Positions 3,001 to 9,000 of a stretch of DNA of 43,624 nucleotides are shown here, one piece after another. The position numbers are program-made. Source of the stretch: a virus (Duplodnaviria; Heunggongvirae; Uroviricota; Caudoviricetes); the IMG/VR virus record IMGVR_UViG_2869924733_000007, positions 1 to 43,624 of that record; one strand, given 5' to 3'. Positions within the stretch are counted from its first letter, which is position 1. Every line of letters starts with the position of its first letter.

Positions 3001-6000
3001 TTGTCGCCCATTAGGCTGATGGTGTGTTATATCGGTATCAACCTTATTTGGGTTGATATAGAAAGCCTCCGGAACCACCCTGTAACTCCTCCCGTGTAGT
3101 TCAGGTGCAGGATAAATGTTTCCATTCCTTGCCCATCGTCTCAGCGTTGATATTGATGGTGGGGTATCCGGATATCTGAGTTTTCCCCACGTTTTGAGTG
3201 TCACAAGATTCATTGCCATACCTCTCACGATATGACCGCCAGTAAATATACAGAATACTGGCGGGTGTGGTTGATTTTTAATAATCAGCTATGAAGTTCT
3301 AATCTGGATATAATGAAATTCACGAGGACTGAAGTTTCTCGCAATTAAAATTTATCAGTTTTACTTTCTGCTCTCTGGAAACGCCTGCTTCTTTTTCCCC
3401 TGAGAGCATTTTTTCGCATTCTGATTTCGTTAGTTTTGTCTTTGAGTATCTTGTCCAGCTGGCAGGAGAACCACCTTCCTTTTCAATAGTGGCTGTAATT
3501 TTATACATGAACACCTCCATTAATATTTTCCCAAAATGCACTTGGTTTTACACCGGAATATTCTCATCGTATCCTGCTTGTTGCGTTTCGTTTTGTGTTT
3601 GTGGATCCGGGAATGCATATTCAACGCCTTCCAGTTCAATCCATAGTGCATTACGACCAGCTTTGATTGTCGGCCAGTCCATACCTTTGATTCTTTCCCA
3701 TGAGCGGGAGGTGAATGTTTTTTCCAGCAAATCAGCTTTTGCGCGTTTGGCGTCGTTACTGGTGCCCCCATGGTGCTTGTTGAGCAACTCGATAATTTCA
3801 TCAAGTGCGATTTCTTTTGCACGCTTTTCTTTTAGCCATGAGGTAGCCTGAGTTTAACGGACACTCCTTCCTGAAATAGAATGGCATCAGAAGGAGCTAA
3901 TAATGAGCAGAAAAACCCAACGTTACTCTAAAGAGTTCAAAGCCGAAGCTGTCAGAACGGTTCTTGAAAATCAACTTTCGATCAGTGAAGGCGCTTCCCG
4001 ATTATCCCTTCCTGAAGGCACTTTAGGACAATGGGTTACCGCCGCCAGAAAAGGGCTCGGTACTCCTGGTTCCCGCACGGTGGCTGAACTGGAATCTGAA
4101 ATTCTGCAACTGCGTAAGGCGTTAAATGAAGCTCGCCTTGAGCGAGATATATTAAAAAAAGCAACTGTAGATTCAATTGGTCAACGCAACAGTTATGTGA
4201 AAACATGGGGTTGCGGAGGTTTTTTGAATGAGACGAACATTTACAGCAGAGGAAAAAGCCTCTGTTTTTGAACTATGGAAGAACGGAACAGGCTTCAGTG
4301 AAATAGCGAATATCCTGGGTTCAAAACCCGGAACGATCTTCACTATGTTAAGGGATACTGGCGGCATAAAACCCCATGAGCGTAAGCGGGCTGTAGCTCA
4401 CCTGACACTGTCTGAGCGCGAGGAGATACGAGCTGGTTTGTCAGCCAAAATGAGCATTCGTGCGATAGCTACTGCGCTGAATCGCAGTCCTTCGACGATC
4501 TCACGTGAAGTTCAGCGTAATCGGGGCAGACGCTATTACAAAGCTGTTGATGCTAATAACCGAGCCAACAGAATGGCGAAAAGGCCAAAACCGTGCTTAC
4601 TGGATCAAAATTTACCATTGCGAAAGCTTGTTCTGGAAAAGCTGGAGATGAAATGGTCTCCAGAGCAAATATCAGGATGGTTAAGGCGAACAAAACCACG
4701 TCAAAAAACGCTGCGAATATCACCTGAGACAATTTATAAAACGCTGTACTTTCGTAGCCGTGAAGCGCTACACCACCTGAATATACAGCATCTGCGACGG
4801 TCGCATAGCCTTCGCCATGGCAGGCGTCATACCCGCAAAGGCGAAAGAGGTACGATTAACATAGTGAACGGAACACCAATTCACGAACGTTCCCGAAATA
4901 TCGATAACAGACGCTCTCTGGGGCATTGGGAGGGCGATTTAGTCTCAGGTACAAAAAACTCTCATATAGCCACACTTGTAGACCGAAAATCACGTTATAC
5001 GATCATCCTTAGACTCAGGGGCAAAGATTCTGTCTCAGTAAATCAGGCTCTTACCGACAAATTCCTGAGTTTACCGTCAGAACTCAGAAAATCACTGACA
5101 TGGGACAGAGGAATGGAACTGGCCAGACATCTAGAATTTACTGTCAGCACCGGCGTTAAAGTTTACTTCTGCGATCCTCAGAGTCCTTGGCAGCGGGGAA
5201 CAAATGAGAACACAAATGGGCTAATTCGGCAGTACTTTCCTAAAAAGACATGTCTTGCCCAATATACTCAACATGAACTAGATCTGGTTGCTGCTCAGCT
5301 AAACAACAGACCGAGAAAGACACTGAAGTTCAAAACACCGAAAGAGATAATTGAAAGGGGTGTTGCATTGACAGATTGAATCTACAACAGCGTATTTTGC
5401 ACAGGAGTCGCTGAAAAATACGCGTTAATCGAACAATGGCGACAACAATTTCCCATTGAAGCGATGTGTCAGGTATTTGGTGTATCCAGGAGCGGTTATT
5501 ACAACCGGGTACAGCATGAACCCTCAGACAGAAAACAAAGTGATGAGCGGCTAAAACTGGAGATTAAGGTGGCACATATCCGCACTCGCGAAACATATGG
5601 AACCCGGCGGCTCCAGACGGAGCTGGCAGAGAATGGCATCATCGTTGGTCGTGACCGACTGGCACGTCTTCGTAAGGAGCTAAGGCTACGCTGTAAGCAG
5701 AAACGCAAGTTCAGAGCGACTACGAACCCGAACCACAATCTGCCAGTTGCGCCAAATCTGCTGAACCAGACGTTCGCTCCTACAGCACCAAATCAGGTCT
5801 GGGTGGCGGACCTGACGTATGTTGCCACACAGGAGGGATGGTTGTACCTCGCTGGCATCAAAGATGTTTATACGTGCGAAATTGTCGGCTACGCCATGGG
5901 AGAGCGCATGACAAAAGAGCTGACAGGTAAAGCCCTGTTTATGGCGCTCAGGAGCCAGCGCCCACCTGCCGGGCTAATCCACCACTCTGATCGAGGTTCA

Positions 6001-9000
6001 CAGTACTGCGCATACGATTACCGGGTCATACAGGAGCAGTTTGGTCTGAAAACATCAATGTCGCGTAAAGGTAACTGTTACGACAACGCTCCGATGGAAA
6101 GCTTCTGGGGAACGCTGAAAAATGAGAGCCTGAGCCACTATCGTTTTAATAACCGGGATGAAGCCATCTCAGTAATACGGGAATACATTGAGATTTTCTA
6201 CAATCGTCAGCGTCGTCACTCTCGTCTGGGGAATATCTCCCCGGCAGCCTTCAGGGAACAATATCATCAGATGGCTGCTTAAAAAAAGAACAAATGGTAG
6301 TGTCCGCTATTGCCAGTACACCTCACCATGTCGGTGTACCGTCGTTGGCAAATAATTCACTGTTATCCCGTGAGGTATCGATGCCGAGGTGTTCACCTCC
6401 CAGGTTAAGAAACTCGATATGAGGAAGAAAGTTTTTAAATGTTGGGTTTGAAAATACCTGTCCATCAATACGGGTGGAGCGATCTTTTAGTATTCTGGCG
6501 GTGCGCCACACCTGACCGGTTTCTGTTTCTGCTTTCATTTTTATACCGGTTTTTGCCAACTGGCGTTTGCCATCATCACCTTCGAAAAAGTCATACTCAT
6601 ATCCTGCACGCCCGCACATAATAATGTGCGCCTGACTGTTAACAAATCGATCGGTAAAGCGTCGCCACTCCTGTTTGAGCCACGCCCAGTCTGAAAATTC
6701 CAGTCCTCGTTTACGGTTTCGGCGTCTGGCATACTCGTCGCATAATCCGGTCCAGAAGTGACTGATGGAGTCGATGATCATTACGGAACCGCTGCTTTCC
6801 GCTTCATTAATGGCTTCAAGCAGATCAACAAACGAGCGGGTTTTTGCCGTAAATAATTCGATATTTTCCGCATCAAAGCGGGGTTTAACCCAGTCAGAGC
6901 CTGTTTCTGTGTCCAGAAACATTACCGGGCGGTTACCAGCTTCAATTCCCCGTTGCCGCATAAGCATTACCAGACCAATAGCCAGTTCGCTTGCTGTGTA
7001 GGTTTTGCCGTCGCCAGCAAACCCCATAATTCCTGCTTTTAGATAGGCCTGTGTGTTTATTGCTCGTTGAAAAAGCGCCATAGATTTTAGTCCTCCAAAT
7101 CAATATCAACCTGGTGGTGGGCAATGGTTTCAGCCATGTACCGGATGTGTTCTGCCATGCGCTCCTGAAACTCAACATCATCATCAAATGCGTGGCTGAT
7201 TGCCTGTTTATTGGCACCGTGGCGTTGCAAATGGTCGATGCAGAGCGATTCAAACAGGTGCTGAGGCAGACCTTTTTCCAGGTCGTCCGCCAGTTCCGTT
7301 TCTTTTTCTTCACGAACGATCTGCTGGTAGTGGCGAGCCCATGCCATTTCTTCAATACGATCAAAAATCGGGTAAGCGCTCATCACTGGTCACTCCAAAA
7401 TTTTCAAGCTTGTTGGCAATCATCATTGCGATGTCAGGGATTGCAGGCGCATAGGCTATGCACGCAGGATTCGCACATAAACCGTAAACCGCCGCAATCA
7501 ACACCTGTTTTTTCCAGTTGAGTTCATCTTCGCCAGTTTCATTATTGCTATCATTATGCTGATCGCTGCCAGCGTTCTCCGGTAACAAATCATCAGCTTT
7601 TTCCGTTTTCTTCGGCTCTTCTTCCTGTGCTTCATCTGGTTTTTTTTCGTCAAAAGTTTCCTGATAAGTTGCGTCTCCCATCACCGCGCCACAGTCAGGG
7701 CAGTTATCCTCGCCAGTCTGATTGCAGGGTGTTCCCTCCTCCGGTTCGCTGTTCTGGTGCTGTTTATCTTCAGTCTGTCGCACTTCATTTTCCGTTTTTT
7801 TGACTTCATTTGAGGAGATATGATGACCGGGAATCCATTTCGGATCATTCGGGTCGCTAATCCCTTCAACAAATTCTCCGCGAGAGGCAGCCAGTAATTT
7901 GTCTGCATCGACAGGATTTTTGGGCGGAATGTTTTTCCGGGCTTCATGGAGTTCTGCCCGCAGTTCCTGATATTTCGCATCAACAGCATTTACCTGTGAC
8001 TGAGCATCCAGCGGCTGCGTGTCCTGATGATGTTCAGTTGCATCCGGTTCCACTGTTTCAGCCGTTGCCTGTTCATCTGCCATTGCGCAAGATGGTTGCG
8101 GTTTTTCTTCATCATCCTGTTTTCCTTCTTCTGTTACACGCTGCGGCATCGGGGCAGAGGAGCGACCGCAGGCAATATCCACGATTTCCGGATCAGGGTT
8201 GGCATGATCGGTTTCAGTCAGTACCTTGTTCAGATATTCAGTGACGTGCGCGGGGATGACCTCGATCCCAATTGGTGCTTCTTTTACGGACGCAACCACG
8301 ATGGCGCGGGAATAATCCAGCCCGCCAGGCATGGTGATGAATTTGTCGCGGAAAACAGAAAAGGGCGGTTTATTTTCAGCGATAATTTCCTCAATGCGTT
8401 TAGCGTGTGCCGGATGAAGGTTATAGATGTCCAGATCCATTGAACGGGCCAGTACGCCAGTGGCTACGTCGCGCGCCAGTGACGTCAGATCGTGTACGAA
8501 ACCTTCGCCGCGATCGGTGAGGTTTCCGCCGCCAGCATTAGCACCGGAAGCCGTGCGAGTGATGTGTGAAACACGATTACCCTTCATCCACTCTTTTGTC
8601 AGCAGTCCTCGATCGGTGTAGTCAGCGTTCAGGTATGCTTCGAAAAAAGCAGTTATCAGTCCCAGGCTTGAATTACCAGGATTAGGGAAAACTTTGTCAG
8701 TGTCACGAACCAGTTTGTGGAGATCGCGAATTTCCAGCGGGTCGAGCAGGCTGGTTTTGTGGGAAACAGCCAGGGCAGTAACAGCCGGTAGTTCTTCAGC
8801 CCGAGCAATGTGTAATGCCTGGAGTCCGTCGCGTGAAACGTGCGTTACCGGTTTTTCGCTGCCGTGTTGAGCAAGCCAGCGAATGGGCAGTTCCTGACCG
8901 GAAACTGGCAGGAGCATGTTCTCCTCAATTTCTGTCATGTCTTCGCCGTTGACGTTGGTATTGTCAGTGCTGGCTGGTTTGTCCTGAACAGAGGGAGAAG

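Follow-up and report, generated by a model that had tools for sequence, protein, structure and literature searches.

The 43,624-nucleotide (nt) virus record IMGVR_UViG_2869924733_000007, the whole of which is called the window here, corresponds to positions 3,019,375–3,062,998 of the chromosome CP027027.1 (assembly GCA_002943855.1; hereafter the source). It carries five copies of the insertion sequence (IS) IS600, each interrupted at the same place, its frameshift cassette, by a complete IS30. We conclude, with a probability of roughly 70%, that these IS600::IS30 units are separate old IS600 insertions, that IS30 homes to the frameshift cassette, and that the resulting states have been shuffled by gene conversion, re-insertion and deletion. 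Two of the five sites are IS30-free in a close relative, three carry inverted IS30 in other relatives, and the same IS600 dinucleotide is occupied by IS30, in one orientation or the other, in many genomes of Escherichia coli.

Under this account, IS600 would have inserted five separate times, long ago, into a decayed, ipaH-bearing Rac-type prophage in a Shigella-like chromosome. The IS600 frameshift cassette would happen to form an IS30 hot spot that draws IS30 in, with loss of the frameshift product OrfAB on insertion, and IS30 state would switch in place between near-identical genomes rather than being fixed by descent from one composite. Three processes may contribute. Site-specific insertion of IS30 is suggested by the use of one AC dinucleotide in two orientations, by the target score and by a parallel case in IS911. 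Gene conversion among the many IS600 copies is shown by co-changing single-nucleotide polymorphisms (SNPs) in the IS600 arms, four-gamete violations and excess arm divergence. Imprecise deletion of IS30 is the third process, with a TGTAGA footprint in BL21-type IS600 as its direct evidence. The respective shares of IS30 re-insertion and conversion in the reshuffling are ones that we infer.

Anatomy of the nested units

The five intervals are each exactly 2,487 base pairs (bp) long and differ from copy 1 by two or three substitutions, a likeness that cannot be due to chance. All five start with TGAGGTAGCC... and finish with ...ACACCTCA, and together they account for 12,435 of the 43,624 bases (28.5%). 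In the following list, 3-bp target duplications are quoted on the + strand of the window.

Copy 1, 3839–6325 (+): interrupts the prophage AAA_24 ATPase gene; duplication CCA.
Copy 2, 15111–17597 (−): in a DUF977 gene; duplication TAC; IS30 at 16050–17270.
Copy 3, 22095–24581 (−): duplication AAA; IS30 at 23034–24254.
Copy 4, 33880–36366 (+): no duplication (GTC|ACT); IS30 at 34207–35427.
Copy 5, 40337–42823 (−): adjoins ipaH; duplication GGA; IS30 at 41276–42496.
Sixth complete nested copy, about 72 kilobases (kb) upstream of the window in CP027027.1 (about 1876–4362 of the extracted locus): IS30 forward; duplication TAT; arm alleles 217A, 445T and 700T.

Copy 4 lacks a duplication because it is located on a deletion junction. 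The sixth copy lies in another prophage-like region of the same chromosome, and was the only further copy in the source genome to be found by look-ups of rare OrfB alleles. Further IS600 copies have 3-bp duplications of TAT, CAA, GGA and TCC. The flanks of all of the copies differ, and segmental duplication was therefore rejected as their origin.

Within copy 1, the parts of the unit are arranged as follows (aa, amino acids; ORF, open reading frame).

3839–3865 (+): IS600 left inverted repeat, TGAGGTAGCCTGAGTTTAACGGACAC..., compared with the reverse complement of the right end.
3903–4271 (+): chimeric orfA, 122 aa; 86 IS600 OrfA codons followed by 36 codons from the IS30 left end; Pfam HTH_Tnp_1.
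4154–4161 (+): A7G slippery run (−1 frameshift site), which doubles as the left arm of the IS30 target palindrome.
4164–4165 (left) and 5387–5388 (right) (+): AC, the 2-bp IS30 target duplication.
4166–5386 (+): IS30, 1,221 bp, in the same orientation as IS600; transposase ORF at 4228–5379 (383 aa).
5464–6282 (+): IS600 orfB, 272 aa, with an rve/DDE domain; 1.2 kb away from the slippery site.
6299–6325 (+): IS600 right inverted repeat.

Without IS30 and one AC, what remains is a 1,264-bp IS600 with imperfect terminal inverted repeats (TGAGGTAGCC... and, as the reverse complement, TGAGGTGTAC...), in agreement with the sum 1264 + 1221 + 2 = 2487. The reconstructed element codes for a 100-aa OrfA and, through a −1 shift on A7G, for a 371-aa OrfAB. 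In the nested unit, IS30 begins 4 nt past the A7G run; OrfA is turned into the 122-aa chimera, an identical protein to which occurs on at least 1,000 contigs, and the −1 frame product ends 24 codons inside the IS30 left end (...KKSNCRFNWSTQQLCENMGLRRFFE and then a stop). IS30 parts orfA from orfB and the nested copy therefore cannot make OrfAB, although the 383-aa IS30 transposase ORF and the 272-aa orfB are intact in all five copies.

Both elements are true members of their families. The IS600 copies are 99–100% identical to those that the Prokaryotic Genome Annotation Pipeline (PGAP) calls ‘IS3-like element IS600 family’, and their proteins have the Pfam domains HTH_Tnp_1 (OrfA) and HTH_21, rve and rve_3 (OrfB). 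They share with IS600, of the IS3 family, the length of 1,264 bp, imperfect inverted repeats, 3-bp duplications, A7G −1 frameshift and DDE (rve) OrfB; they differ in that IS30 intervenes between the slippery site and orfB in every window copy, so that none can yield OrfAB. The IS30 copies are 99.8–99.9% identical to IS30A and IS30C of E. coli K-12, and identical copies in E. coli are labelled ‘IS30-like element IS30 family transposase’ by PGAP. Their single ORF has HTH_38 and rve domains. Like K-12 IS30, they have a length of 1,221 bp, 26-bp imperfect inverted repeats, a 2-bp duplication, a 383-aa transposase and a near-palindromic target; only their location inside another IS sets them apart, and nothing structural does.

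These results confirm in full the observations of a preliminary description of the window made from the sequence alone, which had reported the five loci and their lengths, the IS600 inverted repeats at both ends of each unit, the complete IS30 at one internal position with its AC duplication, the separate 3-bp repeats of four copies (CCA, TAC, AAA and GGA), the inability of the unit to make OrfAB and a total of 12.4 kb, or 28% of the window. That description placed the amplification in one prophage; five copies are indeed there, and the sixth, about 72 kb away on the same chromosome, is outside it.

IS30 states at orthologous sites

Exact matches to three proteins (IpaH, the truncated DUF977 protein and RecE) brought up the same prophage in four to five relatives. 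Outside the ISs, UYIS01000022.1 and CP026824.1 diverge from the window by about 0.06%; CP026836.1, a sister chromosome named Shigella boydii by its source, and the PSSP assembly (PSSP01000002.1) are more distant. Flanks and duplications at the sister sites were verified base by base and are identical at each site. In the list below, N+ denotes IS600 with IS30 forward, N− IS600 with IS30 inverted and P plain IS600.

Site 1: source N+; UYIS01000022.1 N+ with an IS630-family element in IS30 and an adjacent deletion; CP026824.1 N+; CP026836.1 a 1,250-bp IS600 (minus 14 bp).
Site 2: source N+; UYIS01000022.1 N−; CP026824.1 N+; CP026836.1 empty.
Site 3: source N+; UYIS01000022.1 N+; CP026824.1 IS30-free, with a wild-type hot spot and another IS of 914 bp.
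Site 4: source, UYIS01000022.1 and CP026824.1 all N+; PSSP01000002.1 N−.
Site 5: source N+; UYIS01000022.1 N+; CP026824.1 P (1,264-bp wild-type IS600); PSSP01000002.1 N−.

The IS30-free IS600 copies of CP026824.1 have the same duplications as those of the source, AAA at site 3 and TCC (GGA on the + strand of the window) at site 5. Wherever IS30 is inverted in the relatives, the entire element is flipped, including the outermost bases that are specific to one inverted repeat, and the same AC is used. The relatives hold nested copies in both orientations elsewhere on the chromosome, CP026845.1 has many plain copies, and the site of the sixth copy is also nested in the PSSP assembly.

Two of these loci have been invaded further. 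The site 3 IS600 of CP026824.1 (16119–18298 of the extracted locus) has its 914-bp IS, with DUF4096 and DDE_Tnp_1 ORFs, at IS600 position 92. Site 1 of UYIS01000022.1 (712–4353 of the extracted locus) is a triple nest in which a 1.16-kb IS630-family element sits at IS30 positions 1114/1115, inside IS600; the segment from AAA_24 to recE is deleted next to it.

All six variable positions among the five window copies are in the IS600 arms and none is in IS30, and the position pairs 217/445 and 445/1198 show all four allele combinations. Between near-identical genomes, arm divergence is 0.13–0.19%, 2–3 times the flank divergence, with recurrent variation at positions 217, 445, 700 and 1198. The plain site 5 copy of CP026824.1 still has 137T, a SNP private to this site, so that it represents an orthologous IS600 insertion at which the gain or loss of IS30 left the nearby arm sequence in place. 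The two flipped PSSP copies have lost the site-private 700T and 137T and share 570A, and in the site 2 flip of UYIS01000022.1 the SNPs from position 217 to 1198 are replaced. Changes of IS30 state thus co-occur with swapped arm SNPs and therefore point to gene conversion; in the aligned copies, the arm patterns as a whole indicate such exchange among IS600 copies, which the preliminary description had offered as its alternative.

The frameshift cassette as an IS30 target

IS30 prefers near-palindromic hot spots and inserts at their centre with a 2-bp duplication (PMC9333248). The IS600 target, TAAAAAAAGCA[AC]AGCGTATTTTG, matches at 7 of 11 symmetric positions about the duplicated AC, which places it in the top 0.7% of IS600 positions. 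The palindrome is imperfect (AAAAaAaGCa[AC]aGCgTaTTTT, with AC at its centre); its left arm is the slippery A-run and its right arm is the T-run in the 5′ strand of a predicted hairpin downstream of A7G. The hairpin itself (−13.8 kcal/mol) is not distinguishable from shuffled sequence (z = −1.5). Our literature search on the IS30 target found no printed consensus and we therefore built a small weight matrix from K-12 and lambda sites, using only three other IS30 insertions: K-12 IS30A (in IS911), K-12 IS30C and lambda LHS. This matrix gives the IS600 site the highest score among 1,241 positions, 15.4 bits as compared with 4.8 for the next independent position.

The K-12 chromosome offers a parallel. 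IS30A, in the CP4-6 region of MG1655 (2266–3486 of the extracted locus), lies in IS911 at TTAAAAAAGGCT[AC]CGCG, the homologous position a few nt past the slippery heptamer, with the same AC duplication. One AC dinucleotide of IS600 is thus used by IS30 in both orientations, and the homologous dinucleotide of IS911 is used too. From these sequence features we infer that the IS600 site is an IS30-type hot spot that IS30 actively prefers.

In a survey of 5,426 complete E. coli genomes, 997 contained 80% or more of the unit at a single place, and an 80-nt probe over the left IS600|IS30 junction matched 1,518 genomes (median of one copy per genome, maximum of five). Among the matches is K-12 MG1655, with a truncated IS600-left-arm::IS30 beside fecE. 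Probe matches that end after 67 nt with three mismatches represent IS30 inverted at the same dinucleotide, and a dedicated probe for the inverted junction matched 851 genomes. Corrected for cross-hits, the census gives about 1,190 records with the direct junction, about 850 with the inverted junction and about 2,000 genomes in total. Because the site appears to be an IS30-type hot spot that is used both ways in about 2,000 genomes, a shared position and a shared AC are not evidence of common descent. The uninterrupted IS600 site occurs in 1,187 genomes and over half of these are not virgin. An E. coli-wide search with the whole locus found the insertion at the recE-site locus in only 41 genomes, and a junction scan of species-representative genomes returned only two records, both from E. 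coli. One junction stands apart: in the K-12-like strain BHUCD01 (NZ_CM183442.1, 4508488–4508554), 27 nt of the IS600|IS30D junction match the right-end version of the inverted repeat and then diverge from the inverted-nest probe, a pattern that could be inverted-repeat conversion at the IS30 end or a sequence error.

IS30 is also lost from this site. The 1,264-bp IS600 of BL21(DE3) (NC_012892.2; 1215–2478 of the extracted locus), for which PGAP annotates a programmed frameshift, reads GCAAC-TGTAGA-TTTTGCAC at the hot spot; TGTAGA, the first six bases of the IS30 left end, replaces the wild-type AGCGTA. Its locus is that of the K-12 IS600::IS30 (3715–5262 of the extracted locus), to which it is 99.9% identical up to the footprint. 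BL21 carries the IS30-end footprint at the locus that is nested in K-12, and IS30 was therefore removed by a deletion of 1,223 bp, which happened to restore both length and reading frames. The TGTAGA allele is present in 761 of the 5,426 E. coli genomes.

Three other alleles lack bases at the cassette. The delta-17 allele (424 E. coli genomes) carries the annotation of a single intact 379-aa IS3 family transposase (WP_000088357.1); an example in E. coli 503025 (2219–3465 of the extracted locus) adjoins lpxM/virK. The delta-3 allele of E. coli B-2207 (1215–2475 of the extracted locus) is at the same lpxM/virK locus, and both alleles precede the same downstream gene as the BL21 footprint allele. 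At site 1 in CP026836.1 (13031–14280 of the extracted locus), the 14 bp over the slippery run and the IS30 target are gone (delta-14), and orfA and orfB are fused into one 380-aa ORF, with an identical protein on only three contigs. A query for exactly this deletion found none in E. coli and turned up delta-17 instead. Both 14 and 17 are 2 modulo 3, and delta-14 and delta-17 therefore each fuse orfA to orfB in frame. Imprecise IS30 deletion is the likely origin of delta-3, delta-14 and delta-17.

Origin, setting and significance of the units

The preliminary description favoured amplification of the whole unit, trans-mobilised through its IS600 ends, and suggested the comparison of the five sites in near relatives. 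That comparison does not support it: plain IS600 copies with the same duplications, the outcome that the description had itself named as refuting, occur at sites 3 and 5 of CP026824.1, while other relatives have flipped IS30 (sites 2, 4 and 5) or the delta-14 allele (site 1). Neither hot-spot re-insertion nor IS30 excision was among the explanations of that earlier reading.

Several points weigh against separate IS600 insertions with IS30 homing to the cassette. The sister sample is only 4–5 genomes, two of which (CP026824.1 and the PSSP assembly) have indel noise of the kind common in long-read assemblies; in this sample sites 1, 2 and 4 are never seen plain, so they could have arrived nested. 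All six source copies have the same IS30 orientation and zero IS30 differences, which also fits the copying of one unit, and the count of plain versus nested copies in the source is limited to part of the genome (about 75 kb). In the weight matrix, the centre of lambda LHS was placed from coordinates quoted in PMC9333248 and may be one base off. The IS911 site is kin to the IS600 site and is an independent insertion event, not an independent motif. The case for IS30 insertion into the IS600 site is built on sequence comparison.

The strongest rival would dispense with a special target: IS30 entered IS600 twice, once per orientation, and gene conversion did the rest. We consider this rather unlikely. 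It accounts for the arm SNPs that change along with IS30 state at sites 2, 4 and 5, for the four-gamete violations among the five copies, and for arms that diverge 2–3 times as much as the flanks at recurring positions (217, 445, 700 and 1198). It does not account for a site that is ranked first of 1,241 by a matrix of unrelated IS30 insertions and is unusually palindromic, nor for IS30 at the homologous dinucleotide of IS911, an element that has diverged too far from IS600 for conversion between the two. Moreover, SNPs that lie 190 bp left and 118 bp right of IS30 are common to the plain and nested copies at site 5, so that any conversion tract there would need to have been short.

A single, non-autonomous IS600::IS30 composite, moved by OrfAB from an intact copy elsewhere, might instead have given rise to at least some of the five copies; we view this as unlikely. 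IS911 derivatives can be mobilised by OrfAB given in trans, the IS600 ends of the units are intact, and distinct 3-bp duplications mark four of the five copies and other nested copies. The uniform IS30 of the six source copies and the absence of plain states at sites 1, 2 and 4 agree with this explanation, as does site 2, which is empty in CP026836.1 and nested wherever the element is present; intact IS600 able to supply OrfAB exists in related genomes. However, IS3-family transposases show cis preference, and the part of the source genome that was read (about 75 kb, with its six nested copies) contains no plain or intact IS600. Sites 3 and 5 are IS30-free, with the same duplications, in a genome that is diverged by about 0.06%, and, as IS30 differs in orientation at fixed sites, the nested state was evidently gained and altered in place. 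The confinement of all six variable sites to the arms has P ~0.017 under uniform mutation of a unit copied whole, and among the 5,426 E. coli genomes those with the nest nearly always have one copy of it, with no tendency to amplify. The units resemble trans-mobilised IS derivatives (MITE-like (miniature inverted-repeat transposable element-like) forms and IS911 mini-derivatives) in having intact ends and not encoding their own cognate transposase; they differ in that orthologous sites in sisters are IS30-free or flipped, and in that the cargo is an autonomous IS that targets the site. That a unit of 2.5 kb transposed as a whole, given OrfAB in trans, is mechanistically plausible, including at sites 1, 2 and 4, but is not required.

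It is very unlikely that the IS30 flips are in-place inversions, produced by the IS30 transposase or by recombination between the 26-bp inverted repeats. Flipped copies do keep the exact AC duplication and position, and IS30 is documented to generate inversions through junctions of its inverted repeats (PMC9333248), but the flips accompany arm SNP changes up to 870 bp from IS30, which an internal inversion leaves unexplained, and the whole element is inverted, including the outermost repeat-specific bases. Homologous recombination between inverted nested copies was also tried as the cause of the flips and rejected, as it would preserve the internal arrangement. Mis-assembly of a single locus, which the preliminary description had raised, is refuted: near-identical 2.5-kb repeats are difficult to assemble, and nothing else was found to support it, but every copy has unique flanks and private SNPs together with its own duplication where one is present, and three independent assemblies place IS600 at the same five sites.

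The prophage in which the five units reside is of the Rac-type lambdoid kind, and is bounded by yebY/copCD and pphA/yebVW. Its gene set includes an integrase, Xis, RecE, Gam, cI/Cro-like proteins, YdaT and a DnaC-like protein, along with lysis genes, a TrkH-like gene, terminase, portal and tail fibre genes. The following features lie outside the nested units.

1703–2862 and 20253–21412: two copies of an IS630-family element of 1.16 kb.
18274–19497: ORF of a single-copy IS4-family element.
27824–29299: TrkH/TrkG-like gene.
38297–40012 (−): IpaH-type type III effector gene with LRR_TTSS and NEL (E3-ligase) domains, at the prophage end, between copies 4 and 5.

Together, the five nested units, the two IS630-family copies and the IS4-family element make up about 37% of the window. 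The integrase gene of the prophage is cut short by one IS630-family copy; CP026824.1 and UYIS01000022.1 both lack the second. The ipaH-type effector gene marks the host as Shigella or enteroinvasive E. coli. Compared with phage Rac-SA53, about 19 kb of head and tail genes are missing at copy 4, whose left flank ends just past the portal gene and whose right flank lies inside the tail-fibre gene; the deletion is common to all of the relatives examined, and the prophage is therefore defective. An exact-protein look-up of its portal protein gave no record.

The nest is already present in the K-12 reference genome, and the units of the window are a further case of known processes rather than a new type of element. 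The K-12 IS911::IS30A and the IS600-left-arm::IS30D near fecE have the same AC duplication just past the slippery heptamer of an IS3-family element, and the left junction of the latter is identical to that of the window over 80 nt; they are single truncated remnants, in contrast to five complete units with plain, forward and inverted polymorphism in their clade. Lambda LHS (Olasz et al. 1998), as far as it is cited in PMC9333248, is likewise a near-palindrome of about 24 bp with central insertion and a 2-bp duplication; aligned on the insertion centre with the IS600 site, it has a TAAAA..GGC-like left arm and a G....TTT-like right arm. Unlike lambda LHS, the hot spot in the window is a functional part of another transposon, its frameshift cassette. 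A literature search for IS600 with IS30 found no paper describing the nest, and the IS600 cassette was not found as a listed IS30 hot spot in the searchable literature. The use of an IS3-family frameshift window as a repeatedly occupied, two-way IS30 hot spot, with widespread footprint and fused alleles, thus seems to be undescribed.

Annotators should not give ‘IS600::IS30’ a name of its own as a composite transposon, as the shared position and duplication would reflect IS30 target choice and conversion rather than common descent. For IS typing in Shigella, the IS30 state of a fixed IS600 shifts faster than flanking SNPs accrue, which makes it an unreliable phylogenetic marker. Many ‘intact’ IS600 copies of E. 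coli, including that of BL21, are revertants with an IS30 footprint, and two natural alleles fuse orfA and orfB. More speculatively, and in our view doubtfully, IS30 may be a sequence-specific antagonist of IS3-family elements: their cassette would be intrinsically a hot spot in IS600 and IS911, insertion would switch OrfAB off, and loss would leave alleles that either restore the two ORFs or fuse them. If so, the TGTAGA and delta-3 alleles restore the two-ORF arrangement, and the fused delta-14 and delta-17 products could be frameshift-independent, constitutive transposases that restart IS600 expansion or mobilise nested copies. Here one IS appears to seek out the element that controls translation in another and to inactivate it.

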